Shown one piece after another: positions 1 through 21,548 of a stretch of DNA of 32,000 bases. Source of the DNA: Pyrobaculum calidifontis JCM 11548 (GTDB lineage Archaea; Thermoproteota; Thermoprotei; Thermoproteales; Thermoproteaceae). The translations under genes were made by a program, and so were the position numbers. Numbering within the stretch: the first letter of the stretch is position 1; each line of letters starts with the position of its first letter. Under the pieces are notes generated by a model that was not told where the DNA came from, ran no database searches, and was given only the letters and a program-made list of their open reading frames with translations. The DNA lies in NCBI RefSeq assembly GCF_000015805.1, contig NC_009073.1:1380001-1412000 (forward strand), written 5' to 3'.

Positions 1-1043
1 ACCCACCTCCCGCCTTTTATGTACTTCGCCACTCCCCGCACCACGGCGTATACGGCTGCGGCGAGGCCTAGGCCGTAGAGCAGAAGCGCGGCAAAGAGGG
101 CGAGGTAGTTCCCGGCAAGCGACGCCAGCGCCACCACTGTGGCAAACCCGGCGTAGGGGAGAATACAGGGAGTCCACACAGCGCCTAGAGAAAAGCCGAA
201 GAGGAAGTCGCCGGCAGAGCCAAGCCGCTTAAAGGCGAAAGTCTGCAACCTAGAGACAGCGGCGGCGTATTTGACGCTCAGCCTCTCCACGAGGAGGACA
301 GCCCCCAGCAGTAGCAGAGCCACCCCGCCCACCGCGAGAAAGACCTGCCTAGCATACGCAACTGCGCCTCCCACCGCCGCCACAGCCACGCCAACGGCGG
401 CGTAGGACAAGACCATCCCCAGAAGCACCTTGGGCAAACTCCGCCGCGCAAAATGTGTCACGGCGGCGACGCCTAGCACTGGGAGAACGCAGGGAGAAAA
501 CGCGCTGGCGACGCCTAGCACAAACGCAGACAGCAAAGCGGCATACGGGAAGGCGTCGCCGCCCTCTTGCACGCCCTTGGGAGAGAGAAATTCCACAAAC
601 ACACGCTTTAGGTCAACCCCAGGAGGCACGTCCGCCCCCGTCCAAAAGCCCAGTAGCCTAATCCTCCCGCCCTCCGCCACCCCTATTACCACCGTGGGCG
701 TGCCCGGGATTAAAAAAGTCCTCTCACCCCTAACCACGTAGTATTTCACAACCCCGTGATCCACATACGCCACCTGCCCATCCACCACTACGTCAATGCC
801 GCTTATACGCGCCCTAGATAAATCAAGGGTGTAGAGGCTGTACTTCGACATTAAGGCGGCGACTTCCCCATCTGAGAAAAGCGCCTCAAGCCTCTTACAC
901 TCCTCACACCCAGGCTGGTATATGTACAGCAGGAAGGTGCCGTTGACCTCGTAAGGCGACTCCACCTCTTGAAACACGAGAAGGCCCTTCTGCAGAGCTA
1001 AGGCCAAAGCGGCGAGAACTAAGACGAGCAGTACCTGCCTCAT
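1..1043 (-). CDS. ccdA: Thioredoxin-fold (CxxC) domain fused to a CcdA/DsbD-type thiol-disulfide membrane transporter. The 3' end runs off the window.
   Basis: Absent from the ORF track because there is no stop inside the window. My translation from the ATG at 1043-1041 gives MRQVLLVLVLAALALALQ (signal/TM). It continues ...LLYIYQPGCEECKRLEAL (Trx CxxC) ...FLIPGTPTVV (cis-Pro loop). A polytopic part follows with the two CcdA signature cysteines (SAFSPCVLPVLG and GAVWTPCILPYAG). There is an ATGA start/stop overlap with the upstream ORF at 1040-1043. Confidence 0.7.
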   Translation of the reverse strand, partial: MRQVLLVLVLAALALALQKGLLVFQEVESPYEVNGTFLLYIYQPGCEECKRLEALFSDGEVAALMSKYSLYTLDLSRARISGIDVVVDGQVAYVDHGVVKYYVVRGERTFLIPGTPTVVIGVAEGGRIRLLGFWTGADVPPGVDLKRVFVEFLSPKGVQEGGDAFPYAALLSAFVLGVASAFSPCVLPVLGVAAVTHFARRSLPKVLLGMVLSYAAVGVAVAAVGGAVAYARQVFLAVGGVALLLLGAVLLVERLSVKYAAAVSRLQTFAFKRLGSAGDFLFGFSLGAVWTPCILPYAGFATVVALASLAGNYLALFAALLLYGLGLAAAVYAVVRGVAKYIKGGRW

Positions 1044-1612
1044 AGCCTATCCAACAGCCCCGCCACTACTATCCCTATCGCAGTTGTAAAAACTGCGGCA
1101 AGCCACGCCGGGGCCCCCTCTACCACCATCGCCAACGGGGGCAGGGCCAAGACTGCGGTCATTGCAGTAGCTGCGGGCGGGGGCAAGCCGCCGTATACCG
1201 CGAAGAGCGCCGCCAACGCGGCCAGAGTAGACATAAGAAACGCCGCCGCGGCGGCGAGTGGGGCGAGGGAGAGGTCAATGAAGAGGGAGGAGAGGGCCGT
1301 GGAGGCCATGGACAAGGCGCTTGTGACAACGAGTTTTGAGACGTAGACCCCGCTGTGCCCCGCGTAGTAGACAAGGCCCTCCAACACGCCGCGGTCCCAG
1401 TCTCTAATGACGTAGAGATACGCCGAGAGCTGCGAGGCCAAAAACGCCACGAGAAAGACTGCGTATCTCCCAGCGTAAGACCCCACTACCCCAGCCGCCA
1501 GAGAGGCCACGAAGAGAAACACAAGCTCCTCCACTCTCCTAGCCGCCGCCTTGAAGTCGGCCTTAACTACCTCCAGCATACTGAACATCCTCAATCCTGA
1601 CCTCATGCCCAA
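1040..1612 (-). CDS. ccmB: CcmB-like haem exporter permease
   Basis: A 190-aa polytopic membrane protein directly downstream of, and overlapping, the ABC ATPase. The segment VIRDWDRGVLEGLVYYAG resembles the conserved CcmB loop (D/E-x-G-x-LE). The true start may be an internal Met (MFSML, about 1585), because the listed start overlaps ccmA by 50 nt. Confidence 0.5.
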   Translation of the reverse strand: MGMRSGLRMFSMLEVVKADFKAAARRVEELVFLFVASLAAGVVGSYAGRYAVFLVAFLASQLSAYLYVIRDWDRGVLEGLVYYAGHSGVYVSKLVVTSALSMASTALSSLFIDLSLAPLAAAAAFLMSTLAALAALFAVYGGLPPPAATAMTAVLALPPLAMVVEGAPAWLAAVFTTAIGIVVAGLLDRL

Positions 1613-2144
1613 TCCCCAGGGGGAATGGGGAGGTGAGGAGGGCGGCCCCCCTCTCCTTCAACAAGTCTAACAACTCGCCTCTCGCCTCCTCGTCGAGGCC
1701 CGTGGTAGGCTCGTCGATTACGAGGTTGGGGGGGTCGGGGAGGAGGGCTCTCACCACGTCTACCCGCCTCCTCCACCCAAAGCTAAGCGCCTTGACAGGC
1801 TTGTCCAACACCTTGCAGACGCCCAGGGGACAGCCCACAAGCCTCCCGCCGGACAGCTTGGCAAAAAGCTTCAAGTTCTCTCGGACAGTGAGCTCTGGGT
1901 AGAGCATGGGCGTGTGGAATACCACGCCTAAGACGCTGGCGGGCACCCTGGGCCTTCTCCCGTCGACCAGCACCTCCCCCCGAGAGGGCTCCAACACCCC
2001 AGCAATGATTTTAACCAGGGTAGTTTTGCCAGAGCCGTTGGGTCCCACCAATGTGACAACGCTGTTAACTCGCATGTTTACCCCACGGAGGACCCAAAAT
2101 CCTCCAAGCCTTTTCCACACGTCTCTAATCTCAATCATATACAC
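1563..2144 (-). CDS. ccmA: ABC transporter ATP-binding protein, CcmA-like
   Basis: Walker A GPNGSGKTT, degenerate signature LSFGWRRRV, Walker B LVIDEPTTGLD. It sits in ccm context. The listed start is GTG (2144); an ATG two codons in (2138) is an alternative. Confidence 0.7.
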   Translation of the reverse strand: MYMIEIRDVWKRLGGFWVLRGVNMRVNSVVTLVGPNGSGKTTLVKIIAGVLEPSRGEVLVDGRRPRVPASVLGVVFHTPMLYPELTVRENLKLFAKLSGGRLVGCPLGVCKVLDKPVKALSFGWRRRVDVVRALLPDPPNLVIDEPTTGLDEEARGELLDLLKERGAALLTSPFPLGIGHEVRIEDVQYAGGS

Positions 2145-2204: not shown

Positions 2205-2579
2205 CTATGACTTAACTGGGGCATAGTAGGCAGAGTGGCAACCCTTCAAAATTGTGGTTATGTTCAAGGTCTTGGTGGCTGGGTTGTAGAACCCCTCTAC
2301 CACTACCTCGCCGCTGAATTGGAAAGAGGGACCCGCCAGCCTTACGACGGTGTCGTAGGGCACCACAGCCCTTATGGTAAAGCCGTCGCGGCCTCTGAGG
2401 ATTAGGTAGATGTAGTCCCCCTCTCTCCCGTACTCCACAAGTTGGCCGGACACTCTCACCTTGCCTCCTGGGAAGTTCTTCAAGTCGGAGACGTCCTTGG
2501 GAGTTCCAACAAAGAGCGAGGCTATGCCCGCGGCCAAGAAGACTGCCACAAGGGCCCCCGCCACTACCCACCTATTCAT
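2205..2579 (-). CDS. ccmE: CcmE haem chaperone, archaeal variant with C-terminal CxxxY instead of HxxxY
   Basis: 124 aa with an N-terminal TM (WVVAGALVAVFLAAGIASLF) and an OB-like body (VRVSGQLVEY...FTIRAVVPYD...GEVVVEGFY). The C-terminus is ILKGCHSAYYAP, which contains C-H-S-A-Y (CxxxY). ATGA overlap with ccmC. Confidence 0.75.
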   Translation of the reverse strand: MNRWVVAGALVAVFLAAGIASLFVGTPKDVSDLKNFPGGKVRVSGQLVEYGREGDYIYLILRGRDGFTIRAVVPYDTVVRLAGPSFQFSGEVVVEGFYNPATKTLNITTILKGCHSAYYAPVKS

Positions 2580-3535
2580 AGCCTCTCCCGGAGCCAGAGT
2601 ATAAAAGCCATTGTGGCGAAGTAAAGCGCGGCGTTTACATACGCGCTGAAGTGCCGCACCAGCTCCACCCCGCCGCCTGCCACAGCCACGAAGTTCTTGG
2701 GCAAAGTAGGCGTGCCGTTGAAAAAGGCGGGGCTTAACACTTGCCCAGGCGGCACGTTGAGCACCTGCCCGCTCTCTAACACAATAGACGTCTCAGTCAC
2801 ATTCACCACCCTCTGGGGTTGGTAGAGGAGCCAAGGGTAGAGGAGAGCCACTGCCACAACGAGGCCGGCTAAATACACGGCTGAGGTCCACCTCGCCGGC
2901 TTAACAAAGAGGAGGGTCAAGAAGATGGTCAAGATCAAGAGGATGCGCATGCCCATGTACTGCCCCAGGGGCCCCCCGAAGGTGGTGCCCGGCCTGGGGT
3001 GAAACGCCTGTGCCAAGACAGGCGCGAGGAGAGAGACAATTGCGAGGACAAAGCCCGCGATAACAAAAGACTGGGCAAGCTTTACGCTCCTCTCGGGGTC
3101 CTCGACCCCCCTCCTAATGGCTGGGTATAGGGAGTAAATCAGCGCGAGCACTAGGATAGACATCTGTCTGGGGTCTAGGGCGAGGGGCGTGCCCCAGCTC
3201 TCCGCCGCCCAGACGGTGCCGCTGACAAAGGCGTACCACCCCAGCGCCGCCACTGAGTAGGCCGAGAAGTCCATCCACTTGAGAGCCCGCTCTGAGAGAC
3301 CCCTCCAAGCCCCCCACACCGCCAAGACAAAGGACAGAGCGGCCATGACGTAGAGGACAACCGCGGGCGGCACGTGGACGTAGACGTTTAAATACGCCGT
3401 GGGAGCCCCCAGCTCAGCCACAATAAGCGGAAACGGCCCCCAATTCACCAAATAAACCGCGGTAGCCACGTCTACCACTATTAAAACCGCCAGGAGAATA
3501 CCCAAGGGAGACATGTGGACATAATACACGTCCAT
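2576..3535 (-). CDS. ccmC: CcmC-like haem-handling membrane protein with an extra C-terminal extracytoplasmic segment and a terminal TM
   Basis: Polytopic, with a Trp-rich loop WAAESWGTPLALDPRQ (a divergent WWD motif). The likely true start is the ATG at 3514 (MSPLGILL...). The ATG at 3535 lies inside a TATA-like TTAAATA box that sits about 23 nt upstream of 3514. Confidence 0.65.
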   Translation of the reverse strand: MDVYYVHMSPLGILLAVLIVVDVATAVYLVNWGPFPLIVAELGAPTAYLNVYVHVPPAVVLYVMAALSFVLAVWGAWRGLSERALKWMDFSAYSVAALGWYAFVSGTVWAAESWGTPLALDPRQMSILVLALIYSLYPAIRRGVEDPERSVKLAQSFVIAGFVLAIVSLLAPVLAQAFHPRPGTTFGGPLGQYMGMRILLILTIFLTLLFVKPARWTSAVYLAGLVVAVALLYPWLLYQPQRVVNVTETSIVLESGQVLNVPPGQVLSPAFFNGTPTLPKNFVAVAGGGVELVRHFSAYVNAALYFATMAFILWLRERL

Positions 3536-3569: not shown

Positions 3570-4976
3570 CTAACGTTTATCCACGCGTCTATTTACCCAC
3601 AGAGCCGCCAACCCGCCAACAAGCAAGACCACGGCGATCAGCCCCACTGGGCTAGGCCCCGCAGACGATTTAGCCACGACCTCTGAATACGCAGAGGGCT
3701 CCACAGCCCACGTCTGAACTTTAAACTGGTAGCCAATGGCATGCGCATTAGACACCCTACTGGGGTCTATGGAGAGAAAGTGGCAATTGAAGCAGGAGAC
3801 CCAGACTCTACTAGGCCCAACGCCCAACGGCAGAGTAGAGACAAAGTCGTTTTTATAGGCGTCCCAAAGCCCCACCTCAATATTCCGCCCAGGCGTCTTA
3901 GCCGTGATATTACCCACCAGCGAGGCGACGCTCCCCGTGGCGTTGTACTGAGTATAAGCGCGGGCAAGTTTCACAATAGTGGGCGCCGTCTCTACCCCCG
4001 AGCCAGACCCCTCATACGTCCACAACCCCGCGAGCCACTGCCCCCCATACACATAGCCCACGTGAACCACCGAGTGACACCTACACCCCACACCCCAGTG
4101 CACACTAGTAGAAACCACAGACGCAATAGCCGAGTGACAAGAGCCACAGTACTTCCAAGCCTCGTCCCCACCATAGGTGTTGTGCGCCCAGACATTTTGC
4201 CTAACCGTGGGGTCATACACCGTCGACGGCTGGCCGTGACACGGCTGACAAGCATCAGGATGTTGCAAATACTGCGTAGGCGAAAGAGTCCTCTTCGTCG
4301 CATTAATGTAGCGGGCGACATCCCAAATGTTATACCCATGGAAGTGGCAGTTAAAACAGGAAAGCCAGCTCTCCTCCGCCACTGCCCCATAGGCACCGCC
4401 GAATTTGGCGGGCACAGAGGCTATGTCGCCCACCCACCAATCCCACAACACCACCACGGCCACATTAACTGTATACCCTCCACTGTACAACTGATTAACA
4501 AGCTGGCATACCTTGGGGGGACAGTTGCTGGGCGTCCGCGTACAGTTGCACCAAAGCTTCGCCTGTTTAAACACGAGAGGCGGGTCTACATAAGGCGGAG
4601 CGGCGACGGGAAGATAAGTCTCTACTAAAACCTCGCTAGGGTGTGTAGAACTGTGACGGTTGAGATTTACATGTATAACTGCGTGGCATGCACATTCACG
4701 CGCACGCGGCATAACAGGCACCCCAGCCACCCGCTTGCCGTTGCCGTCATGACATCCACAATACCTTCGGTCTTGGCGATGTCCGTAGGGCGGGGGCGAG
4801 AGGTAAAACGTGGCGCTGGATAATTTCGCGTGGGGGGCGCCGGCCACGTACTCCACATGACAGTTAAGACAGCCTCTATCTCGCTGTTCACTGTGGCAAC
4901 TGTCGCAGTTCCCCACTTGAACCGACACGGCGAGGGTAAACACGGCTAGAGATAAGACTAGGACGAGCTTATTCAT
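3570..4976 (-). CDS. Secreted multihaem c-type cytochrome with a C-terminal membrane anchor (6 CxxCH plus 3 CxCH motifs)
   Basis: Signal peptide MNKLVLVLSLAVFTLAVSV. CxxCH motifs: CDSCH, CLNCH, CFNCH, CQPCH, CGSCH, CFNCH. CxCH motifs: CGCH, CACHAVIHV, CRCHSVVHV. C-terminal TM plus basic tail: GLIAVVLLVGGLAALWVNRRVDKR. N-x-S/T sequons are present. Confidence 0.8.
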   Translation of the reverse strand: MNKLVLVLSLAVFTLAVSVQVGNCDSCHSEQRDRGCLNCHVEYVAGAPHAKLSSATFYLSPPPYGHRQDRRYCGCHDGNGKRVAGVPVMPRARECACHAVIHVNLNRHSSTHPSEVLVETYLPVAAPPYVDPPLVFKQAKLWCNCTRTPSNCPPKVCQLVNQLYSGGYTVNVAVVVLWDWWVGDIASVPAKFGGAYGAVAEESWLSCFNCHFHGYNIWDVARYINATKRTLSPTQYLQHPDACQPCHGQPSTVYDPTVRQNVWAHNTYGGDEAWKYCGSCHSAIASVVSTSVHWGVGCRCHSVVHVGYVYGGQWLAGLWTYEGSGSGVETAPTIVKLARAYTQYNATGSVASLVGNITAKTPGRNIEVGLWDAYKNDFVSTLPLGVGPSRVWVSCFNCHFLSIDPSRVSNAHAIGYQFKVQTWAVEPSAYSEVVAKSSAGPSPVGLIAVVLLVGGLAALWVNRRVDKR

Positions 4977-7548
4977 AGCGGGTTAAGTAGAACAGCAGTA
5001 TTACTGCCGCCAACGAGGAGAGCCATAGGAGGTTCACCAGCGGCACCGTCTTTACGCTTATGTGTATTTCGCTCTGCGTCGGCGTGTATTGGTGGACTAA
5101 CGTGGCGAGCTCTAGTAGGGCTGTCAAAAAGGTGGTGGCGAAGCTCTGGGGGTCGGCGTTGGAGAGGAGGTTTATGTTGTACCCCGCCGCGGCGAGGGCC
5201 AATAGCTTGAGGCTCTCCCGCGGGTTAAGCGTCTTACACACCTGCGATAGGTAGTAAATCATGGGCTCTGGATATGTGGCAAACTCCCCCTGGACGTATG
5301 GAGTGAAGACAGCTATGTAAACATCGTCGAGCCCGCGGGGCACAGTGACAACCGCCGATACTAGGCCGTGTATGCCAGACACCTCCCCGTTTATGGCGTA
5401 TCTAACCACGGCCTCCAGCCTCCTGCCATCTACCGCCAACACAGTCTTGGAGAAGGCCTCGGCGGGGACCGCCTTCGGGACGTCGGAGAAGGTGTGGGCA
5501 GCTCTCACGTCTGACAAGAGGTCGAGGTAGGGGGTTTGTAATAGGCCGTAGAGGGGGGTGCCCGGCGTCATAGTCATGTAGTACAAAGTCAAGTTCATGT
5601 CAAGCGGCATGGGCACAGCCCTCCTCACGCCCCCCACTTCCACCACGGCAGACATTGGGATTAGGGCGCCACCGCTGGACACTAAAGTCCCCGTGACGTT
5701 GACCACGGCGTCCCCCGCCTTAAACACAAGCGGCTTCTCCACTGTCATTGTCTGATTCACCGGGGAGTTGCCCCATATGTACAACATGAGGGCCAGCCCC
5801 CCAGCCCCGCCGTGTGCCACATACGCCCCCACAGACGCGTTTTCCACGAAGTAGACGTTGTCCCCCGCCTCAATGCGGAGGTCGCCCACATGCACAGGCT
5901 TTTTGACTAGCGCAAAGAGGTAGGACAAGGCGGGGTCTCCCTCGACGCGCCGCCTCCCCTCCTCTATAAAAGGCCTAGCCTGACTCACAAGGGAGCCCGC
6001 CGACAATAGGCCATACTGGGCGTATTGATACACGGAGTTTCCCCTATACACCGTGTAGATGTCGACCTTGTCGGCGGAGAGACCGAGTTGGTAGTCCTCC
6101 ACTCTTATGGAGACGCCGGCCACTTTAGCCTCTGCGCCTGGCTCCACGTAGAGGTCTAGGAAATACGCCCTGCTGTACGCGTGAGGCAGACTGTACACCG
6201 CGGCTACGAAGAAGAGGAGGAGGAAGAGGTGGAGTATCCTCAACACAGACGTCCTCCCCCTAGCCCTATACGCCGAGTATAAAATTACCCCGGCCCCCAT
6301 GGCCGCCCAGACCAAGGCGGCTCCCACCGCGGCGTTTGTAAGCGGGTGCGACTTCGGCGAGAAGGGGACCGCCCCCACATAGGCGGCCGCGGCCAAGGCG
6401 CCGCTGGCCACGGCCCCCACGGCGACGTAGAGGAGGAGCGTTTTGCCGCCCCTCTCTAGGTATATCAGCGGCGAGAACATGAGCGTTATCAACACCAGCA
6501 GATAGAGGGCGGGGTTGTAGAACCACATCCCGTCGTCCATCTGCGGCGGCGCCGTGTTTAAGCCAAAGGCCACCCCCAGCGAGGGGACTAGGAGAGAGCC
6601 GTAGAGAAAGACCCCCGCCGTGAATATGGAGAGGAAAGTCAACATCTTGCCCCAGTTTTCCACAGCCCACTTAGCCACGAGGAGGTGGCGGAGGGCCATA
6701 AGCAGAAAGGCCAGGGAGAGGGCTAGGAGGAGGTAGCCGCCTGCGCCAGGCGAGGCAAAGCCGTGGAGGGGGCTCATCCCCGTGCGAGTGACAAAGAGGG
6801 CTAGAAACACCGAGCCCGCCGCCAAGAGGAAAGAGGCCTTTTTCACGTCGCTAAGCGCCTTGGGGGCGTGGAGGGCGGCGGCAGCCACGACGAAGACCAT
6901 GAGCTGGGCAGTCTCCACGGGGTCCCACGCCCAGTACCCACCCCAGCCAAAAGTGACATAGCTCCAGTACCCACCTACCACAAGCCCCGCGAAGAGGAAG
7001 GCCAGCGCCGCATAGGCAAGACGCCTCAGTCCAACGGCCTCGACGTAGGCCAAGGCGAGAGACGTGGCAAAAACTCCCGCATACCCTAAAAAGACCAGCG
7101 GCGGGTGGATAGAGACCCAGAAGCTCTTAAGCAGTGGGTTTATGCCCCCGCCCACAGTGGCCTCCTGCAGAGTGTCAAACGGCCCGTAGAAGTATGCCGA
7201 CGCGCCTAAGAGGAGGAGCACCGCCGCCGCGGCCCTCGCCACCTTCAAAGGGGCGCCAGCCCTATGCACAAGGAAAATGAAAACCCCCAAGAAGAAAGAC
7301 AAGAGGAGGAGGCTAGACCCAGTCCCAGCCCACGACGCAGAAAGCCTCAGCCACCAGTCCGCCCCCACGTTAGTGTTCTTAGCCACCTCGAGGAGAGAGA
7401 AGTCCTGGGCCAAAAACGACGCGGCGTAGTAAAGCCAAGAGGCGGCCAACAACGCGGTGGCCGCCGCCAGCAAGCGGACTCTCCCAGTGACAACAAACGC
7501 CAGGTAGACAACCAGAGCTATTGCAAAGACGAAGCCAGTTGGATGCAT
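4969..7548 (-). CDS. ccmF: CcmF-like cytochrome c haem lyase with a large C-terminal extracytoplasmic domain and a terminal TM
   Basis: 859 aa. The N-terminal ~460 aa are polytopic and carry the canonical WWD motif WGGYWAWDPVET. About 350 aa of soluble-looking domain follow, then a final TM (LWLSSLAAVILLFYL). It overlaps the downstream cytochrome gene by 8 nt. Confidence 0.8.
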   Translation of the reverse strand: MHPTGFVFAIALVVYLAFVVTGRVRLLAAATALLAASWLYYAASFLAQDFSLLEVAKNTNVGADWWLRLSASWAGTGSSLLLLSFFLGVFIFLVHRAGAPLKVARAAAAVLLLLGASAYFYGPFDTLQEATVGGGINPLLKSFWVSIHPPLVFLGYAGVFATSLALAYVEAVGLRRLAYAALAFLFAGLVVGGYWSYVTFGWGGYWAWDPVETAQLMVFVVAAAALHAPKALSDVKKASFLLAAGSVFLALFVTRTGMSPLHGFASPGAGGYLLLALSLAFLLMALRHLLVAKWAVENWGKMLTFLSIFTAGVFLYGSLLVPSLGVAFGLNTAPPQMDDGMWFYNPALYLLVLITLMFSPLIYLERGGKTLLLYVAVGAVASGALAAAAYVGAVPFSPKSHPLTNAAVGAALVWAAMGAGVILYSAYRARGRTSVLRILHLFLLLFFVAAVYSLPHAYSRAYFLDLYVEPGAEAKVAGVSIRVEDYQLGLSADKVDIYTVYRGNSVYQYAQYGLLSAGSLVSQARPFIEEGRRRVEGDPALSYLFALVKKPVHVGDLRIEAGDNVYFVENASVGAYVAHGGAGGLALMLYIWGNSPVNQTMTVEKPLVFKAGDAVVNVTGTLVSSGGALIPMSAVVEVGGVRRAVPMPLDMNLTLYYMTMTPGTPLYGLLQTPYLDLLSDVRAAHTFSDVPKAVPAEAFSKTVLAVDGRRLEAVVRYAINGEVSGIHGLVSAVVTVPRGLDDVYIAVFTPYVQGEFATYPEPMIYYLSQVCKTLNPRESLKLLALAAAGYNINLLSNADPQSFATTFLTALLELATLVHQYTPTQSEIHISVKTVPLVNLLWLSSLAAVILLFYLTRYE

Positions 7549-7566
7549 ATGCGCCTCTACACAGAA

Positions 7567-8883
7567 CTATTTATGCCTAGCTATACAACGTGTACACTTA
7601 ATATACAGTGGAACCACAGGAATTAGTAGAACAAAAAACCAGAGAAGCGAAAAGAGGAGTAGGTTGGGGTAGACCGCGATGTCTGCCACAATTGAAACCT
7701 TCAGCCCCCCGCACTCCCTGCCGAGGAGAGCAGAGAGTCTACACAGCTGGTATGAGAAGTACACCTCGTCTCCCAGCCAAAACCTCGCCACCACCACGTG
7801 TGGAAAGAGGTAGGCAGTGACCGTATACGACTCCGCCTTGGCCATTGAAAAGTCCACGGACAGGGGTATTGAGTACTCCCCCACGCCTTTTATTACCACG
7901 TCGAAAACCCCCGCCCCCCGCTCGCCCTCTACGCCAAACGTGGCCCCCTTCAATGCCACATATCTGCCATCTGCCGCAGCCAGAGAGCCGTCTGGCGCCA
8001 CGTCGAGGGGGCCCAACTTCCCCGAAAAAGTGGCGGGGGGAGGCAGGAGGAGGGGGGAGAAGTAGATCAACGCCACCGCGGCCGCGGCAAAGGCCAGGAG
8101 AGATGCCCTGGGCAAAGAGGCGGCGAGGAGAACTGCGAAGGGCAACACAGCCGAGAGGAGAGGCGCAAGCGAAGGCGGGGAGAAGTAGACGGCCAAGAGG
8201 TAGACCCCCGCCGCCATGGCCAACCCCCCAGCAAACCTCCTAGGCGAGGCGGCCAGAGAGGCCACTGCCACGGAGGCCGCGGCGAGGGCCAACAAGTACC
8301 TCCCCCCGACGAATTCCCCCGGCGAGCCTGTGAAAAGCCTAAAAAGCCCCCAGCCCAGCCAAAGCGCAGTCAAGCCGGTGAGCACCACGGCCCATTTCCC
8401 ATTGCCCCTATCGACGGGAGAAAAGACGAGGGGGACTAGGGCGAGGGAGAGGGCCGGGGCCAGAGGCCAGCGGCCAAAAGGCGAGTCAAACAGCAGGACG
8501 ACGGACTGCAAAACCAGCGAGGTGGCGCCCAGCAGGTAGGCCAGCCTCCCCCCTCCAGCCCTCCACCCGGCCCACGCCAAGAGGGCGACGTAGCCGAAGT
8601 AGGGGCTTAACACGTCGATGGGCTGCCCAGCCGCTATATACCCCGCCGAGGTAACGGCGATGCCCCCCGCCGTGAGTAGATACCCATGCCGCCAGAACAC
8701 AATGGCGGAGAGGAATAGGGCAAGAGAAAGCGCGAGGAGAAGCGACAAAAACTGCCCCGACCCCCCCGCCGCCCACACCACGAAAAGCAACGCGGCGTAG
8801 AGAGAGAGAAACCACCTAAAACCCCTGGCAAAAACCGCCAAGGCGAGAGAGAAAAGAGCTAGGAAAGGGAGGGGGTCAGGCAC
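7567..8883 (-). CDS. Polytopic membrane protein of unknown function in the ccm cluster (about 9-10 TM, an extracytoplasmic domain and a terminal TM)
   Basis: 438 aa with a GTG start. It is highly hydrophobic and Ala/Leu-rich for ~290 aa, followed by a beta-looking domain (GKLGPLDVAPDGSL...VYFSYQL) and a final TM (LLLFSLLWFFVLLIPVV). I could find no WWD or CxxC motif. The position between a cytochrome gene and ccmF suggests a maturation accessory role. This is inference only. Confidence 0.5.
   Translation of the reverse strand: MPDPLPFLALFSLALAVFARGFRWFLSLYAALLFVVWAAGGSGQFLSLLLALSLALFLSAIVFWRHGYLLTAGGIAVTSAGYIAAGQPIDVLSPYFGYVALLAWAGWRAGGGRLAYLLGATSLVLQSVVLLFDSPFGRWPLAPALSLALVPLVFSPVDRGNGKWAVVLTGLTALWLGWGLFRLFTGSPGEFVGGRYLLALAAASVAVASLAASPRRFAGGLAMAAGVYLLAVYFSPPSLAPLLSAVLPFAVLLAASLPRASLLAFAAAAVALIYFSPLLLPPPATFSGKLGPLDVAPDGSLAAADGRYVALKGATFGVEGERGAGVFDVVIKGVGEYSIPLSVDFSMAKAESYTVTAYLFPHVVVARFWLGDEVYFSYQLCRLSALLGRECGGLKVSIVADIAVYPNLLLFSLLWFFVLLIPVVPLYIKCTRCIARHK
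7582..7607 (-). promoter_or_regulatory. Phased hexamer array upstream of ccmF: TATACA-acg-TGTACA-cttaa-TATACA
   Basis: TATACA 7582-7587, TGTACA 7591-7596, TATACA 7602-7607. The central hexamer starts 43 nt from the ATG at 7548. A TATA-like ATAAATA (plus tatttat, 7568-7574) is present. The array lies inside the last codons of ORF 7567..8883. Confidence 0.6.
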
Positions 8884-8910
8884 GGGGAGAAAAAGGGAGG
8901 GGGTTTATTT

Positions 8911-10068
8911 TTACTGTGCCCTCCTCCTCAGCGCCAAGAAGGCGCCTCCAAGCAACGTGGCAGTGGCCAAGAGGGCGACTAGCGACAAGTTAGGCGCCAC
9001 GCCGCCGCCAGCCGCCTGAGCCGCCGGCATCACAATCTTGTGCGGGTCAGTGAGAGAGTTAAGCACATCGGCGGGTATGCCTATCTTCCACACGCCGCCC
9101 ACCTCCATCACCTTAGCCGTGCCAAGCTGACCCTGGTAGACGAAGTGGCAGTTGAAACACGCAGCAACGCCTGGGTTAACGGCCACTGGCAAGTAGTAGG
9201 GAGCTCTTGAATATGGCGCATATGGAGCTACCAATATGAAGTCGCCAGTGTGTATGTCAAATACGCCCATGACAATAGTCTCGCCATTAGGCGCCTCCTC
9301 AGTCAACGGATGCGTCCTGACACTGGGGTTCTTCAGCACGGCGCCAGATGCAGTACCCCACTCATAGCGGAATATACCAGCTTGCTCTAAAGCACTGAAG
9401 AAGTCTGTCTCAAGGAAGTCGGCAGCAGAGCTCTTTGCTTTTACTGTGCCGTTGGCATACTTATCGTAGCCTACAAGTAGCGCCTTTACCGTAACCTCGC
9501 CCTTGCTCTCTAGAAGTTGCATCAACGACGTCGGCGCATTACCACTGAATGTGTATGTGCCTTCTGGCGTACCTTTGAAACATATGTACACGTTCCGGAA
9601 GTCTAGAGTGGGCTTGGCGCCGAAATAGCCCGGCGTAGCGGTAGATAATCTGGGCACATAGAAGTATATACATGCAGTGTAGCCGTCTGTTGGATTGCCG
9701 TAGCCCACGTGTGCTACTGCGTGACACGCACATCCATACGAGTTCAGAAGACCGGAGTGCACATTACCGGGGCCGCTATTAATAGAGTTCCAAATAGCTA
9801 CGTGGCAGTTTATACACTTTTTCCATACGTCTGTACCCTTGAGTACTTGGTGGCTCCAGACACACTCCTGCTGGCTTGGGTCACAAGCGCCAGCGGCCGG
9901 CCCGCTAGTTAGTCCGGAGAGGGCTTGGCTGTTGGCCGTTCCTGTCGAGTTTGAGTGGCAGGAGATGCAGTTTGTTGGGTGGTTGTATGAATAGGGCGGG
10001 CCGTACGTTGCTGCTACGAATACTGCTAGTAGTAGTAGCGTTGTAATTAGCGCGGGGAATTTCTTCAT
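8911..10068 (-). CDS. Secreted multihaem c-type cytochrome with a C-terminal membrane anchor (3 CxxCH plus 1 CxCH)
   Basis: Signal peptide MKKFPALITTLLLLAVFVAA. CxxCH motifs: CISCH, CINCH, CFNCH. CxCH motif: CACHAVAHVGY. C-terminal anchor LVALLATATLLGGAFLALRRRAQ. It is a single-module paralog of 3570..4976, sharing the CxCHxVxHV and CFNCHF blocks. Confidence 0.8.
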   Translation of the reverse strand: MKKFPALITTLLLLAVFVAATYGPPYSYNHPTNCISCHSNSTGTANSQALSGLTSGPAAGACDPSQQECVWSHQVLKGTDVWKKCINCHVAIWNSINSGPGNVHSGLLNSYGCACHAVAHVGYGNPTDGYTACIYFYVPRLSTATPGYFGAKPTLDFRNVYICFKGTPEGTYTFSGNAPTSLMQLLESKGEVTVKALLVGYDKYANGTVKAKSSAADFLETDFFSALEQAGIFRYEWGTASGAVLKNPSVRTHPLTEEAPNGETIVMGVFDIHTGDFILVAPYAPYSRAPYYLPVAVNPGVAACFNCHFVYQGQLGTAKVMEVGGVWKIGIPADVLNSLTDPHKIVMPAAQAAGGGVAPNLSLVALLATATLLGGAFLALRRRAQ

Positions 10069-10101: not shown

Positions 10102-10167
10102 TGTATTTGTCAAGTACTTTTTTTATGTTTTTTGTACACTCTGTATTTTGTGTGTACATTTTGTATT
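10102..10167 (-). promoter_or_regulatory. Hexamer cluster upstream of the trihaem cytochrome gene
   Basis: TGTATT (10102-10107)-n5-AGTACT (10113-10118), with the latter starting 45 nt from the ATG at 10068. Two further copies of TGTACA-n3-TGTATT lie at 10133-10147 and 10153-10167, a 20-bp period. A TATA-like TTTAAATA (plus tatttaaa, 10090-10097) is present. The distal copies lie in the last codons of ORF 10110..11918. Confidence 0.5.
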
Positions 10168-11918
10168 CGGCGTAGGGCTGGGAATAGGAGTGGGGCTAGG
10201 GCGACTAGCGCGGGGGCGTAGGGCGGCTCTTCTTGGCGTTGTGGAGGCTTGGGTAGCGCCGTGACTTGGGCGTGGGGCTGGGCGGGGGCTTGGCTCCAGT
10301 TGGCCCACCTCTCTGCTATTTGACAAGCGTGTACTCTCGCCAAGTAGAGTAACTTGGTCTCGTTTAGGGGAGCCGCGGCGGCTATGGCCAAGTTTTCTCG
10401 TAATGAGACTTGGCCGTCTGGTCTTACGACGTGGCTCAGCGCGTCTAGGTAGTGTAGGTATTTTACGTCTGTGGTGTTGGGGAAGGCTGGGTGTAGGGCG
10501 AAGTAGGTGAGGGCGTAGGCCAACGCCTCTATGTAGTAGCCCAGGGCCGCCTTGTAGTTTCCCTGTCTCATTGCTATTTCGCCTCTGGCGTAGTTGAGGG
10601 CGGCGTTTCCCACGAGTTGTGGAGATATTATGTCTGTGGCTTTTGAGTACATGTCGGCGTATCTCACTGCCTGTTCTACATATCTGCGGAGGCTCGCCGC
10701 AGCCTTCTCTATGTCGTATGGCTCAGCGCTGTGTGTATAGTAGAGGAGGGATTTCCATAGGTAGTAGACTGCTTGTGCATATTTGTACGCGGCCTGCGCG
10801 GCGCTGTCTATAAAGCCCATTTTGTAATAGGCATAGTCGAGTCCAGCGTCTCGCATGTAGACCTGGGCCGTGTGTATATACATGTGGGCGTATGCCATGT
10901 CGCACAGCGGCGCCGTGTTGTTAGCCACAGCGTCTGCGAGCTCAAGCAAGGCGGCTAGGTATGTGGCTATCTCTACCTCGGCCCCCTGTGGGTCTGTCAG
11001 CATCCTCACGTAGAAGTACGGCGTGGCCGCCTCTGCTATTGCGCGGGGGAGGGCCTCTGTGGCGAGGTCAGTGTTGTTCTTTGCCACTTGTACATAGGCC
11101 AGGGCTTGGGCGGCGCCTCGCCTTAGCACATCTGCGTACTGTGGGTAAAGCGCCGCGAGGCGGAGGGTCTTGTTTACAAAGAGGAGGGCCTCTTTTTCAA
11201 CTGCGTCTATTGGCGTGGCGCTGTTTAAGACGGTCTCGGCGGCTTGGCCCAGCCTCTCTAGATTCGCCGTGAGGTTGTAGGCGGCCCCCGCGGCGATGGC
11301 TACGGCTTGGTATATGTTGCCCACTTCTTCTACTGGCACTATCTCGGCCAGGGGGAGGGGCCTCCTCTCTACTCTCTCTACCAAGGCGCCGTAGACGCCG
11401 TAGAGCTTGGGCTTCCACACTATTTTGTAGTCGTAGTGTTGGAGGACTGGGTATACGAAGAGTTTGAAGCCGTACTGCCTGGCGCCCTGGGCCTTTTCCA
11501 CGAGGCCTCCCACGAAGTCTACTACGCCGCCGGGGGCCAGAGTCCCCGTGTAGATGATCGACGCGTTGAGGGGGGTGTGCGTTATTGCGCTGTACGCCGC
11601 CACTGCCACTGTCAGCGATAGGCTTGTCCCCACTAGGGCCCGCGAGGCGTTTAGCGGGTTTATCACCACGGTGTAGTTTAGGGCGAGGGGGTCGACTCCC
11701 GCCGCTATTGCGGCTTCCCAACACGCCGAGATTGTGGAGTAGTAGAAGGTTAAGTCGTAGTAGTCTAGGCCCTTGATTTCAACGGTGCCGTTGCCTGGCC
11801 CCACGTACACCGCCACTTGGACTGGCACTGCCCTTCCGTCGTAGATGGCTAGCCCATACGCCGTCCCCTGGCCGTAGGCCAAGGCGGCTAGTAGGAGGAG
11901 GACTAGCGCCCGTGGCAT
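10110..11918 (-). CDS. Secreted protein with an N-terminal Lon-like (S16) peptidase-type domain, an Ala/Tyr-rich helical (TPR-like) repeat region and a C-terminal anchor
   Basis: Signal peptide MPRALVLLLLAALAYG. LVGTSLSLTVAVAAYSAITHTPL and TGTLAPGGVVDFVGGLVEKAQGARQYGFKLFVYP resemble the Lon proteolytic-domain blocks (G-x-S-A-G...; TG-x-I-x-x-G-x-V-x-P-V-GG-x-x-EK...G-x-K-x-x-x-x-P). Candidate Ser and Lys residues are retained. The helical repeat region includes GNYKAALGYYIEALAYALTY. The C-terminal hydrophobic stretch is ALVALAPLLFPAL followed by a basic tail. Assigned by motif recollection only. Confidence 0.5.
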   Translation of the reverse strand: MPRALVLLLLAALAYGQGTAYGLAIYDGRAVPVQVAVYVGPGNGTVEIKGLDYYDLTFYYSTISACWEAAIAAGVDPLALNYTVVINPLNASRALVGTSLSLTVAVAAYSAITHTPLNASIIYTGTLAPGGVVDFVGGLVEKAQGARQYGFKLFVYPVLQHYDYKIVWKPKLYGVYGALVERVERRPLPLAEIVPVEEVGNIYQAVAIAAGAAYNLTANLERLGQAAETVLNSATPIDAVEKEALLFVNKTLRLAALYPQYADVLRRGAAQALAYVQVAKNNTDLATEALPRAIAEAATPYFYVRMLTDPQGAEVEIATYLAALLELADAVANNTAPLCDMAYAHMYIHTAQVYMRDAGLDYAYYKMGFIDSAAQAAYKYAQAVYYLWKSLLYYTHSAEPYDIEKAAASLRRYVEQAVRYADMYSKATDIISPQLVGNAALNYARGEIAMRQGNYKAALGYYIEALAYALTYFALHPAFPNTTDVKYLHYLDALSHVVRPDGQVSLRENLAIAAAAPLNETKLLYLARVHACQIAERWANWSQAPAQPHAQVTALPKPPQRQEEPPYAPALVALAPLLFPALRRIQNVHTKYRVYKKHKKST

Positions 11919-12607
11919 CTGGCGCAGTCTAGGAAGTCGGCTGGGCTAAAGCCCATGGCTCTGGGCCCGTGGCACCCTATGCATGGGACTCCCTTGCCTG
12001 CGCCTATTTGGCAGTCTGGCCCTATTGGGACATACCACCTGGACCACGGACTGTGGCACTCTAGGCATACCTCGTATTTGCCCATGTCTACTTGGGCCCA
12101 GGCGGAGTCGTGGAAGACCATGTGGGTGTTTAACACTTTGTTGTAGTCGTGGCAGGTCTGACATCTGGCGCTTGTGGTGGCGGAGTCGTGGGGGTTGTGG
12201 CAGAGGGTGCAGCTCTTTAGCCTGTCTGCCAGCTGGGCGTGCGCCTCGTGGATGTTTAACTGGGAGAAGGACTGGGCTGTGTGGCAGGTGAGACACTGGT
12301 CGAACATGGGCTGGGCGTATCGCGCCGCTATTTGTTGGGGAGTTGGGTTTTCCACTGCTTGTACGTAGATCCAGCGGAGTAGGTCTATGGAGTGGCAGGT
12401 GGCGCAGGAGGTTCCCCCATGCGGCGTATTTTTAATGTTGGCGATGAAGGGGAGCATGTTGTGGCAGGTGGCGCACACGGCCGATGACCCGGGGTCGTAC
12501 CTCAAGTACAGCCAAAAGCCGACTCCGGCGACCACCGCCGCGGCTAACAACAGCAGTGCCACAGTCCTGGGAGTAAGCGCCTTTCTCAGCCGCTGTAGCC
12601 TACCCAT
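11903..12607 (-). CDS. Membrane-anchored octahaem c-type cytochrome, NapC/NirT/NrfH-like
   Basis: N-terminal TM (TVALLLLAAAVVAGVGFWLYL) and eight CxxCH motifs: CATCH, CATCH, CLTCH, CTLCH, CQTCH, CLECH, CIGCH, CARCH. It overlaps both neighbouring genes (8 nt and 16 nt). Confidence 0.8.
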   Translation of the reverse strand: MGRLQRLRKALTPRTVALLLLAAAVVAGVGFWLYLRYDPGSSAVCATCHNMLPFIANIKNTPHGGTSCATCHSIDLLRWIYVQAVENPTPQQIAARYAQPMFDQCLTCHTAQSFSQLNIHEAHAQLADRLKSCTLCHNPHDSATTSARCQTCHDYNKVLNTHMVFHDSAWAQVDMGKYEVCLECHSPWSRWYVPIGPDCQIGAGKGVPCIGCHGPRAMGFSPADFLDCARCHGR

Positions 12608-14222
12608 GGCCCGCCAGCCTCCTTATTAAAATTGCAAGTATGGCAATGAACGGAAAAATCGCCGCCGTCAACACGTCTCGCGTCTCTTTGGGGGCTAGCT
12701 GGGGGTTTTGTGGTAGAGTTAGTACATACGCGTACCCCGACTCTACTTTGAAGGCGGCGAGGTTGTCGCCATAGAGGTAGAAGACGAGGTAGACGTAGTC
12801 GCCGGGGGGCATTGGCAAGAGGTATCTAAGTCTCACTGTGCCGTTTATGTACCCGGCGTAGCGGCCAGAGTTTGTGGAATTGAAAAGCGTCGTGGGCGGC
12901 AACGGGATGAGAACCCCGCTTTTGTTCATTAGTAGGATTGGCCATAGCGCCGTCTGTCTTAGGGGGTCTCTAGGCCTCGCTGTCACGTTCATTTCGACGT
13001 AGGCCGCCACGGCGTTGGGGAGGCGGGGTATTTCCAGTCTCATGAGGGGCTGCGGCTGTGTTAGCTGTATGGAGTAGTAGTGGGGCACCACTAGGGGTGT
13101 CTTTTTCTCCAGTGTAATGGGCTGGGCGGGTACTTGGGGCAGTTGTACCACGCCTTTTTTAACTACGCCGGGGCCTGTGTATACGACTGTGACATTTCCG
13201 CCTGCCGTGGCCTCCAGCGGCAAGAGGCGTATTGTCAACAGACTGGGCTTGGCCACCTCTGCAAAGAGCGTGGCTGAGAGCGCGTGTTCTAGGGCGAGCC
13301 CCTCTGGCGACACTGTGTCGTTTAATAACACGTCGTATTGTACTCCCAGCGCCGTCTGTCTAATGCCCACTACTACTCCGGCCAGCGTCCTGTATTCCAC
13401 CGTGGGCGGCTGTATTGATATAGGCCCGGTGTAGTTCATGGGGTATATGGCGTAGCGGTTTTGAGGCCCGGCTATCTCCACTTTGAAGTATGTGACGTTG
13501 CCCCACGCCTTTGACGGCTCTAGGAGTATCTCTCCGCCGCCGCTTAAGTCCTTCTCCACGGTGACGTTGCCCACGTTCAGCGTTACTTTTACCTGTATGT
13601 ACTTGGCTAAGTAGTAGTAATAGGGCTGGTACGCTATTCTCAGGGCCTTAGACCTATTGAAGCAGTACCATGAGACTATTTTTAGAAGGCCTATGTCTCC
13701 CCCGTATTTCCCGGCTAGGTCTATTTGAAGCCAGTTGCAGAGGTCTACCACCCGCGTTTTGACGTTGAAGGCTAGGGCGCGCCACTCGGGGGTAAAGACT
13801 AGGCTTTGCCCAGCCCTCTTGGCCGCCTCTGCTATGTCTAGGTAGTACACGTCTTTTACCACGCCGCCGCGGGTCACCACTATGAAAGTGGCATTTAAGA
13901 ACTCCACCGCTGTTTCCTCGCCTGCGCACGCGTCCATGAGGGTTTGGCTGAGGGACAACGTGGCAGTGTTCTGCGGGTTTTGGAAAACGTAGTGCATCGT
14001 CTTCTCCCCCTTCGCTCCGCAGTTGAAGCGTAGGTGTAAGACGGCTATTGTGTAGACGTCTTCGCCTAGGTGTTGAGATAGGGCGGTGTTGTTTACCTTG
14101 ACTGCAACTACTACGTCTGTTACTATGGTGAGCGTGGTCTTGTTTACTACTTCTACCTCGATGCCTGGCGCCACTGTTATGGCTATGGCGAAAGGGGCAA
14201 TAAGTAGAACGAGGTATTTCAT
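12600..14222 (-). CDS. Secreted, heavily N-glycosylation-sequon-rich protein of unknown function with a C-terminal anchor
   Basis: The start is reassigned to the ATG at 14222 (MKYLVLLIAPFAIAITVAPG, a signal peptide). The ORF-track extension to 14351 runs through the TATA and hexamer promoter region. At least 13 N-x-S/T sequons are present. C-terminal TM AAIFPFIAILAILIRRL. No recognisable catalytic or cofactor motif. Confidence 0.6.
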   Translation of the reverse strand: MKYLVLLIAPFAIAITVAPGIEVEVVNKTTLTIVTDVVVAVKVNNTALSQHLGEDVYTIAVLHLRFNCGAKGEKTMHYVFQNPQNTATLSLSQTLMDACAGEETAVEFLNATFIVVTRGGVVKDVYYLDIAEAAKRAGQSLVFTPEWRALAFNVKTRVVDLCNWLQIDLAGKYGGDIGLLKIVSWYCFNRSKALRIAYQPYYYYLAKYIQVKVTLNVGNVTVEKDLSGGGEILLEPSKAWGNVTYFKVEIAGPQNRYAIYPMNYTGPISIQPPTVEYRTLAGVVVGIRQTALGVQYDVLLNDTVSPEGLALEHALSATLFAEVAKPSLLTIRLLPLEATAGGNVTVVYTGPGVVKKGVVQLPQVPAQPITLEKKTPLVVPHYYSIQLTQPQPLMRLEIPRLPNAVAAYVEMNVTARPRDPLRQTALWPILLMNKSGVLIPLPPTTLFNSTNSGRYAGYINGTVRLRYLLPMPPGDYVYLVFYLYGDNLAAFKVESGYAYVLTLPQNPQLAPKETRDVLTAAIFPFIAILAILIRRLAGHG

Positions 14223-14254
14223 GTGTCTGAATTTTGTAAAATTATTTAAGCACA

Positions 14255-14282
14255 TGTATTCAAGTTGTACACTTGTTATAAT
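14255..14282 (-). promoter_or_regulatory. Phased hexamer array TGTATT-n5-TGTACA-n5-TATAAT
   Basis: TGTATT 14255-14260, TGTACA 14266-14271, TATAAT 14277-14282, in exact 11-bp register. The central hexamer starts 44 nt from the ATG at 14222. A TATA-like TTAAATAA (plus ttatttaa, 14243-14250) is present. The array overlaps the stop codon of the upstream nrfD-like gene. Confidence 0.6.
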
Positions 14283-15253
14283 GGTTCTGGAATTCCAGCG
14301 TATACCACTAGCGTTCTTAGGGCTAGTGCGCCGAAGAGGCCGGCGACGCATCCTGCGTAAGTTAACTTGGGGCTGTGCCTAATTTTTGACAGCGCGGCTG
14401 TGGCGAGGGGGGTTACGATTCCGAGGCCGATTACGAAGACCCAGAAGATCGGCGCTAGCTCGCCCCACAGCACTGCGTGTGCGCTTTCTCTTGCCGCGAA
14501 TGAGGCGGAGTTTAGGGCGTTGTAGAGGAAGAGGAATATCACGGCGACTTCGCCTATTTCAAATAAGACGCCGTATTTCTCAGTGGTGTGTACTAGGTGT
14601 TCTCTGTCTAAGTGGTACATTCTTATGAGGGCTAAGGCCCCCGCCGTGGCGCTGAATATCCATATGGTGGGTATGCCGGGGATTCCCCAGAGCGTCGTGT
14701 TCCAAAACGGCACTGCCTTTGCTTCAGATATTAAAAAGCCGCTGTACAACGTCACCAATACTCCGATGGCCATTGCTAGGTAGTAGTACCACCTCTGTGC
14801 CAGTAGCCACGTGGCGATTTTGTCTAAGAGGGCTAGTAGTGGCGCGAGGGGCTTTGCCAAAGGCTGTGGGAGCGCGGCTTGGATTCGTCTTACTAGGTAG
14901 GGGAGTGCCCATATGGCCACTACGAGAAGCGCCAGTATTAACATGACTATGCCGAGTGCCATCCAGGAAAATCGCAACTCCCCCCTTAGGAATGGGAAGA
15001 GGAAGTTGTATCTAAGCTCTAGGAAGGAGTTCAACATGGCGAACATCATGACTGTGGGTGGTCTTGAGAGATCTCCCATTACGAAGAGGAGGGCAAGTAT
15101 GATCGAGGCCAGTAGCACGTAGGTCAGCGTCTCGTACCGTAGCTCCTCTCCCCTTAGCTTGAAAATTGACATGGCCACCATCCCCATGCCGACTAGCCCG
15201 GCGAAGAATAGGAAGGGGCCTATTAAGAAGGCGTCCCAATACTCCTGAAACAT
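14276..15253 (-). CDS. NrfD/PsrC-family polytopic quinone-interacting membrane subunit
   Basis: 325 aa with about 8-9 TM helices. It is a paralog of 17544..18416 (both begin ...EIW/EYW..LIGPFL... and end ...LRxLVxxAGxxEP). It is the last gene of an operon with two FeS proteins and a cytochrome. Confidence 0.7.
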   Translation of the reverse strand: MFQEYWDAFLIGPFLFFAGLVGMGMVAMSIFKLRGEELRYETLTYVLLASIILALLFVMGDLSRPPTVMMFAMLNSFLELRYNFLFPFLRGELRFSWMALGIVMLILALLVVAIWALPYLVRRIQAALPQPLAKPLAPLLALLDKIATWLLAQRWYYYLAMAIGVLVTLYSGFLISEAKAVPFWNTTLWGIPGIPTIWIFSATAGALALIRMYHLDREHLVHTTEKYGVLFEIGEVAVIFLFLYNALNSASFAARESAHAVLWGELAPIFWVFVIGLGIVTPLATAALSKIRHSPKLTYAGCVAGLFGALALRTLVVYAGIPEPL

Positions 15254-15954
15254 TACTCCTCCACGATGAAGAACTTGGGCTTAGTGTTTTTCTCTGGCAT
15301 TAGTACGTAGACCCGCTTGGCGGCGGCCAGCCTCTTTGAGATTGAGGAGTTGGGGTCGTTTATGTCGCCGAAGTCTCTTGCCCCCACTGGGCAGAAGGCG
15401 ACGCAGGCGGGGAGCCCCCCACTCTTTACCCGTTGGATGCACCAAGTGCACTTGGAGGGCGTGCCTTCTTTATTTATCCACCTGGCGTCGTAGGGGCACG
15501 AAGATATGCAGTACTTACAGCCGACGCAGAGGTTGTAGTCCACTAGCACAATGCCCCCGTCTTTATCGACGTAGGAGGCGCCAGTGGGGCAGTTGCGGAC
15601 GCAAGGCGCATCTTCGCAGTGTTGACACTGTATAAATATAAAGCGCGGCAAATCTCCGTGCTCTGTTTCAACTATTTTTGTATTTGCCTGAGGCCACCCC
15701 CACGACGCGTTTGGAGACTTGTCTCTTCCATAGTTTACCGCGTTGCAGGCAGCCACACAGGCTCCACAGAAGATGCACTTGGAAACGCTCCAGAGGAAGG
15801 CGTACTTTTTGCCTTGGCCGTCTTTGACTTGGCCCACTTCTACTGGCTGTAGTTTTAGCCCCTTGGCGTTGCTTTTCGACGGCAACAAGGATAGTGCAGC
15901 TAGAGCCACTGGCAATGTGAGAAATTGGCGCCTATTCATGGCCCCCCTCGCCAC
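15253..15954 (-). CDS. Tat-exported 4x[4Fe-4S] ferredoxin-type subunit (NrfC/PsrB-like)
   Basis: Twin-arginine signal MNRRQFLTLPVALAALSL. Four Cys clusters: CIFCGACVAAC, CQHCEDAPCVRNCP, CVGCKYCISSCP, CTWC...CVAFCP. Confidence 0.8.
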   Translation of the reverse strand: MARGAMNRRQFLTLPVALAALSLLPSKSNAKGLKLQPVEVGQVKDGQGKKYAFLWSVSKCIFCGACVAACNAVNYGRDKSPNASWGWPQANTKIVETEHGDLPRFIFIQCQHCEDAPCVRNCPTGASYVDKDGGIVLVDYNLCVGCKYCISSCPYDARWINKEGTPSKCTWCIQRVKSGGLPACVAFCPVGARDFGDINDPNSSISKRLAAAKRVYVLMPEKNTKPKFFIVEE

Positions 15955-17521: not shown

Positions 17522-17548
17522 TATTCAAGATGTACACTTTGTATTACA
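17522..17548 (-). promoter_or_regulatory. Phased hexamer array TATTCA-n3-TGTACA-n5-TATTACA
   Basis: TGTACA 17531-17536 starts 43 nt from the start at 17488. A TATA-like ATATATTT (plus aaatatat, 17508-17515) is present. The array overlaps the stop codon of the upstream nrfD-like gene. Confidence 0.55.
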
Positions 17549-21441: not shown

Positions 21442-21473
21442 GTTTCCATAGAATTTTATAGATATAAAACTCT

Positions 21474-21511: not shown

Positions 21512-21548
21512 TATGGCAAAGCTTTTATTTCTCTCAGCCCCATGGCGC

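Follow-up and report, generated by a model that had tools for sequence, protein, structure and literature searches.

CxCH with a one-residue spacer as a probable haem c attachment site in the cytochrome nanowire locus of Pyrobaculum calidifontis

Can two cysteines separated by one residue and followed by a histidine serve as an attachment site for haem c? This question is raised by a stretch of 32,000 nucleotides from the genome of Pyrobaculum calidifontis JCM 11548 (RefSeq assembly GCF_000015805.1, contig NC_009073.1, positions 1,380,001 to 1,412,000), referred to here as the window. Two cytochrome genes in the window, both on the reverse strand (−), encode proteins of 468 aa (3570..4976) and 385 aa (8911..10068) that contain CxCH motifs in addition to canonical CxxCH sites. 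A preliminary description of the window proposed that CxCH is either a novel haem attachment site, a donor of two distal His ligands, or a metal or disulfide site. The evidence presented below makes it very probable that the window carries the cytochrome nanowire locus of P. calidifontis and that CxCH is a c-type haem attachment site with a single spacer residue.

CxCH motifs and the haem count of PcECN

The predicted 385-aa protein is identical over 385/385 residues (100% identity) to chain A of PDB entry 8E5F (E 7e-268, PDB sequence search). This entry is PcECN (UniProt A3MW92), the extracellular cytochrome nanowire of P. calidifontis, which later papers cite from Baquero et al. 2023 (Cell 186:2853), and secondary papers describe 8E5F/A3MW92 as a tetrahaem protein with bis-His c-type haems. 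Four haem-to-haem steps per 8E5F subunit are tabulated in the supplement of PMC11936953, which gives haem indices only, without Cys or His residue numbers.

PcECN contains only three CxxCH motifs, all canonical and recovered in the motif scan and in the family alignments. These are CISCH at C34 (site 1, 9955..9969), CINCH at C85 (site 2, 9802..9816) and CFNCH at C304 (site 4, 9145..9159). Site 3 is the block C113-A-C115-H116-A-V-A-H120 followed by V (9709..9732), which consists of CxCH with a further His at +4. Exactly four Cys-His dipeptides are present in the protein, namely C37-H38, C88-H89, C115-H116 and C307-H308. As the CxxCH motifs take up three of the four Cys-His dipeptides and there are four haems to be placed, the fourth haem needs C113-A-C115-H116. 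Judged by the haem count from the literature and the motif count together, the CACH site must, as deduced from sequence, be a haem carrier. The first of the three proposed roles, haem attachment, is thereby upheld by the identity with 8E5F, the tetrahaem description, and the presence of three CxxCH and one CxCH. In the mechanism that we propose, the haem vinyls would form thioether bonds with both CxCH cysteines, and the His next to the second cysteine would be the proximal iron ligand. C113-A-C115-H116 would carry the third of the four haems, and H120 at +4 would most likely ligate a neighbouring haem of the stacked chain on its distal side.

The predicted 468-aa product, with a signal peptide and an anchor at its C-terminus, has nine candidate haem sites (6 CxxCH and 3 CxCH). 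Its six CxxCH motifs, located by a regular expression on the translation, are CDSCH (C24), CLNCH (C36), CFNCH (C207), CQPCH (C243), CGSCH (C277) and CFNCH (C395). The first two (4857..4907) are N-terminal canonical sites that are CxCH or Cx4CH in relatives. Two of the CxCH motifs belong to extended blocks, C95-A-C97-H98-A-V-I-H102 then V (4671..4694) in the N-terminal module (N-module) and C298-R-C300-H301-S-V-V-H305 then V (4062..4085) in the C-terminal module (C-module). The N-module block aligns with that of the C-module, which is equivalent to C113..H120 of PcECN. The third motif, C73-G-C75-H76 (4749..4760), is a bare CxCH and a probable additional (ninth) haem site. Translation of the two open reading frames (ORFs) gives exactly the CxCH strings quoted in the preliminary description. 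The extended form CxCH-[AS]-V-x-H-V, which had been counted four times, does recur, but it is present three times only as YCGCHDG is a bare CxCH without the His at +4.

Both the 468-aa and the 385-aa protein have a signal-like hydrophobic segment at the N-terminus and a hydrophobic segment at the C-terminus that is followed by basic residues. No Pfam (E <= 0.01) or NCBIfam model matches either cytochrome. The two other multihaem cytochromes predicted in the window carry eight CxxCH each and zero CxCH. In 20,000 composition-preserving shuffles of each protein, the mean number of CxCH expected by chance was 0.043 for the 468-aa and 0.009 for the 385-aa protein, and 0/20,000 shuffles of the 468-aa protein reached 3 CxCH. 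Chance occurrence was ruled out on these expectations, and a sequencing or frameshift artefact was ruled out as the motifs are kept in independent assemblies.

It is highly improbable that the CxCH-x3-H block does not attach haem at all and is instead a metal, iron-sulfur or disulfide site, or a donor of two distal His ligands. Such a role would draw on the strictly conserved cluster-binding box of Rieske [2Fe-2S] proteins, which is the same CxCH string, and on the presence of two His in the block. However, the motifs described here are found in a multihaem context, and no Rieske or other metal-site Pfam domain and no partner CxH box was detected. This role is also contradicted by the four haems of PcECN against three CxxCH, with no spare Cys-His dipeptide to take its place.

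Conservation of the block and interchange of spacer lengths

A PcECN family set of 22 proteins (48-100% identity) was drawn from Pyrobaculum species, P. ferrireducens, a Thermoproteus species and metagenomes. In the 21/21 members that cover the block, YGCACHAVAHVG is unchanged. Searching 1.8 billion representative proteins with a profile gave 50 relatives in two size classes, single-module proteins of ~240-310 aa and double-module proteins of ~430-515 aa. Named family members are from Pyrobaculum and Thermoproteus, and many of the further relatives are metagenomic. A scan of genome contigs confirmed only two loci, in Pyrobaculum sp. and P. oguniense. With one single-module family member as query, chain 8E5G of AvECN did not come up as related in sequence.

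For comparison over longer distances, an alignment of 23 sequences was built from PcECN, the 468-aa C-module and 21 relatives with a single module (20-30% identity to PcECN). Residues invariant in this alignment are C34, C37, H38, C85, H89, C113, C115, H116, H120, C304, C307, H308 and F309. The four Cys and His residues of the block (C113, C115, H116 and H120) are thus all invariant at this distance. The relatives preserve the PcECN-type order of sites, CxxCH, CxxCH, Cx(1-2)CH-x3-H and CFNCH-F, plus four conserved, presumably distal His. Among the His residues outside the Cys-His motifs, conservation is at least 90% for H73, H104 and H343 and complete for H120. Four proximal and four further conserved His are therefore the exact number for four bis-His haems. 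The idea that the block donates two distal His survives in part only. The first His is more probably proximal, and the number of conserved His would be too low for four bis-His haems if both were distal, whereas the invariant second His (H120 and its equivalents) is a likely distal ligand.

Spacer length at the columns of C113 and C115 is one residue in 17/23 sequences and two residues in the other 6/23, where the site is CKGCH (twice), CQGCH (twice), CQACH or CLGCH. Similar exchanges are seen at three other sites in orthologues of the 468-aa protein. The C24 site, which is CDSCH in the 468-aa protein, is CDCH in a Pyrobaculum metagenome-assembled genome (L003) and in the protein fragment P0055. 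CLNCH at C36 gives way to CSCH in two relatives, P0026 and P. oguniense (L004), and to CTGSGCH, a Cx4CH, in P0027. The C95 site is CACH in the 468-aa protein and in most orthologues, and CxCH in 6/7 other full-length orthologues, whereas P0033 has CVVCH-MSF-H. Sites 1 and 2 of single-module relatives can likewise be Cx3CH or Cx4CH (P0037 and P0070). Spacer length drifts while both Cys and the His stay, which is the behaviour of a haem site, unlike that of a metal or disulfide centre. This interchange at homologous positions is the strongest comparative argument that CxCH would be a haem attachment site. The suggestion of a metal or disulfide site finds no support, as there is no Rieske domain and a canonical CxxCH replaces the block at the same column in relatives.

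A further alternative is that haem is held by a single thioether, with only C115 bound, the arrangement of euglenozoan (A/F)xxCH cytochromes, and with C113 serving in a disulfide, in metal binding or in redox tuning. To our knowledge, a one-residue spacer is tighter in geometry than any well-characterised spacer, which counts for this arrangement. We nevertheless regard it as improbable, since C113 is invariant family-wide, down to 20-30% identity, and is kept where the spacer lengthens to CxxCH. Nor does C113 have a disulfide partner. The twelve cysteines of PcECN fit four haem-binding pairs, of which three are those of the CxxCH motifs, and two other conserved pairs, C62/C69 and C133/C163. 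With the other cysteines paired off, C113 is therefore left without a partner besides haem. Attachment through both cysteines is accordingly the arrangement we prefer for CxCH, as a prediction.

Non-canonical haem c motifs with other spacers or ligands include CX3CH, CX4CH, CX15CH of MccA and CXXCK of NrfA (see also PMC9084895). CxCH follows the same logic as the long-spacer motifs, two Cys and then the proximal ligand with a spacer other than two, and in PcECN-like cytochromes Cx1, Cx2, Cx3 and Cx4 spacers are all found at homologous sites. It differs in that its spacer is shorter than the canonical one. CXCH is already among the haem-binding patterns of the FEET pipeline. In full-text searches of the literature other than the primary PcECN paper, this pattern and a mention of the Rieske box were the only results for the CxCH motif, and none of the papers mentioning PcECN within the searchable literature discusses the motif.

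Haem on CxCH in PcECN is already embodied in the 2023 structure, and the nature of the motif is in this sense already known and largely settled. What goes beyond the searchable literature is incremental, and comprises the family-wide plasticity from Cx1 to Cx4, a neighbouring protein predicted to be nonahaem, and the possible acceptance of a one-residue spacer by the Ccm system. The present findings are a refinement and an extension rather than a discovery. They do bear on multihaem censuses, which usually count CxxCH and a few long-spacer variants only. Under a CxxCH-only rule PcECN is undercounted as a trihaem and its 468-aa neighbour as a hexahaem protein, and the counts for PcECN-like nanowire cytochromes are corrected once Cx1CH is accepted as an ordinary form of a haem site that interchanges with others. 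The archaeal Ccm system of the window may accept very short spacers, which is relevant to the heterologous production of such wires.

The 468-aa tandem paralogue

The 468-aa protein matches 8E5F weakly (E 1e-6) in a plain sequence search. In profile comparisons with hhalign, the PcECN family aligns with residues 222-464 of the 468-aa protein with a probability of 99.8% (E 4e-28), and all four haem sites are in register (CISCH with CQPCH, CINCH with CGSCH, CACH with CRCH, and CFNCH with CFNCH). The conserved PcECN residues H30, H73, H104 and H120 are also in register with the C-module, which is a clear homologue of PcECN. The N-module in turn aligns with the C-module with a probability of 98.7% (E 3e-16), pairing CACH with CRCH, CFNCH with CFNCH, and YC-GCH with YCGSCH. 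As the N-half aligns to the C-half and the C-half to PcECN, the 468-aa protein is therefore a tandem PcECN-like cytochrome, and differs from PcECN in having nine candidate sites, three of them CxCH. It probably arose by tandem duplication of the PcECN fold, with the C-module retaining the four sites and the N-module the same four and one extra. The four-site scheme of the preliminary description, with two modules in the 468-aa protein and one in the 385-aa protein, accords with the register between PcECN and the C-module, but the N-module has five candidate haem sites where the C-module has four.

Full-length orthologues of the 468-aa protein are 441-514 aa in length, and the C298 block is invariant in 10/10 orthologues. 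The copy of this protein in the public database (P0024) is of 380 aa only and starts at M89. It lacks residues 1-88, which hold YCGCH, two of the CxxCH sites and the signal peptide. The long form is supported because the 441-514 aa orthologues cover 90-99% of its length.

The fifth N-module site, YCGCH, determines whether the protein would bind nine haems or eight. The bare motif is kept as Y-C-x-C-H in 8/10 relatives that cover the region, and is gone from P0028 and P0033, which keep all other sites. H108, which may be a distal ligand, is found in all 8 sequences that have the motif and in neither of the 2 that lack it (P0028 and P0033). Such joint loss would be expected for a haem site and its distal ligand. 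A fifth site, in the form Cx3-5CH, is also present in the N-module of more distant double-module relatives, and YCGCH aligns with a genuine CxxCH of the C-module in the hhalign comparison described above. These observations argue against an octahaem protein (two times four), in which both CxCH-x3-H blocks bind haem and YCGCH is structural or vestigial. That arrangement accommodates the loss of YCxCH from P0028 and P0033, agrees with the earlier scheme of two four-site modules, and takes account of the missing His at +4. We consider eight haems possible, if rather unlikely, and favour a protein that would bind nine, three of them on CxCH.

For the N-module, the predicted ligand set is H49, M89, H102, H108 and H239, which is coherent by the count of conserved residues. 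The codon of M89 lies at ~4710..4712 (−). This residue is Met in all aligned orthologues but one, and it occupies the column of a distal His, H293 in the C-module and H104 in PcECN. Its position suggests that one haem in the N-module may be His/Met-ligated.

Maturation genes and the surrounding locus

Genes that predict a streamlined cytochrome c maturation system surround the two cytochrome genes, all on the same strand (−). A CcmA-like ABC ATPase of 193 aa (1563..2144) matches ABC_tran with E 3e-22. The CcmC-like haem-handling membrane protein (319 aa, 2576..3535) matches Pfam Cytochrom_C_asm (E 7.7e-10) and NCBIfam ccmC (E 1.7e-8, below cut-off). The product of 4969..7548 is a CcmF/NrfE-like haem lyase of 859 aa, with matches to Pfam Cytochrom_C_asm (E 1.6e-18) and NCBIfam nrfE/CcmF (E 1.7e-25, below the curated cut-off). 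The candidate CcmB permease (1040..1612) was assigned solely from where its gene lies. An ORF of 124 aa (2205..2579), located between the genes for CcmC and CcmA, ends in KGCHSAYYAPVKS and has an N-terminal anchor and a C-terminal C-H-S-A-Y (CxxxY). From its position and motif it is a candidate archaeal-type CcmE. Its sequence has no match in Pfam (E <= 10), NCBIfam or a PDB sequence search and is too divergent for these. A further gene, between those for PcECN and CcmF (7567..8883), predicts a polytopic membrane protein of 438 aa without a family match. Neither this protein nor the CcmB-like one has a Pfam match at E <= 10, and the 438-aa protein is also without an NCBIfam match. No CcmH, CcmD or CcmI was detected among the scanned ORFs of the window.

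The gene order of the ccm and cytochrome cluster recurs on two metagenomic contigs (L001 and L002), in both of which the 438-aa gene keeps its position. The 438-aa protein could be a maturation or assembly partner. A metagenomic protein (P0034) has a membrane domain with weak similarity to the 438-aa protein (E 9e-5 over 62 aa) fused to a cytochrome like the 468-aa protein. The end of the CcmF gene and the start of the 468-aa gene overlap by 8 nt (4969..4976), and the CcmC and CcmE-like genes by 4 nt (2576..2579). These overlaps therefore suggest co-transcription and translational coupling of cytochrome and maturation genes.

A streamlined cytochrome c maturation System I in archaea is reportedly already treated in work by Allen and co-workers from 2006. 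Bacteria require dedicated lyases for long-spacer and CXXCK sites. The window, with a single CcmF-like and a single CcmC-like protein, shows no evident second dedicated lyase. In its streamlined archaeal form, System I consists of CcmABCEF, has a CcmE with CxxxY, and lacks CcmD, CcmH and CcmI (Gupta et al. 2022, PMC9084895). The arrangement in the window resembles this system in having CcmA-, CcmC- and CcmF-like genes around the cytochromes and a gene for a small anchored protein with CHSAY at its end, and differs from it in the unusual length of the CcmF-like protein (859 aa) and in the adjoining 438-aa membrane protein. Such a System I (CcmA, B, C, E-like and F) presumably attaches the haems on the outer side of the cytoplasmic membrane, and its lyase would tolerate spacers of one to four residues.

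A more specific proposal can be made, although we hold it to be less likely than not. The 859-aa CcmF-like lyase, perhaps together with the 438-aa partner, may be unusually permissive towards its substrates and attach haem to Cx1CH-Cx4CH at interchangeable positions without a second lyase. The 468-aa protein would then be a nonahaem cytochrome with three CxCH haems and one His/Met haem (M89), and would serve either as a second subunit of the wire or, close to the membrane, as the base on which the PcECN filament stands.

Several points weigh against the assignment of CxCH as a haem attachment site throughout this locus. The wording 'c-type, bis-His' for 8E5F stems from secondary papers, and the bonds of C113 and C115 to haem and the identities of the axial ligands are deduced here from the protein sequences rather than taken from the 8E5F coordinates. 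In the paralogue, the bare YCGCH, with its absence from two relatives and no His at +4, is the weakest of the four CxCH motifs. An AlphaFold2 prediction on the 468-aa family alignment gave a predicted local distance difference test score (pLDDT) of 39, too low for the model to be used. The link of this Ccm cluster to the maturation of CxCH is plausible and derives from gene context.

Directly upstream of PcECN is a gene for a 602-aa secreted or anchored protein (10110..11918, −) that has a weak match to Lon protease in its C-terminal domain, and its position is kept in L001 and L002. The 602-aa protein is a candidate processing protease that might cut off the C-terminal anchor or help to assemble the filament. 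Further upstream are two genes for cytochromes of ~230 aa, the products with eight CxxCH each referred to above (11903..12607 and 16796..17488, both −). Two NrfD-like membrane proteins, three 4Fe-4S proteins and a molybdopterin oxidoreductase are predicted in the region of 14276..16726 (−) and 17544..21543 (−), and a second molybdopterin oxidoreductase is found at 26629..29805. The NrfD-like, 4Fe-4S, octahaem and molybdopterin genes could represent modules for quinol oxidation and terminal reduction that supply the wire or draw on it, and a route from quinol to the wire via the genes upstream of PcECN is plausible. Between the NrfD-like and octahaem cytochrome genes, 12600..14351 (−) encodes a 583-aa protein without a family match, and counterparts of 542 or 517 aa are located at the same position in L001 and L002.

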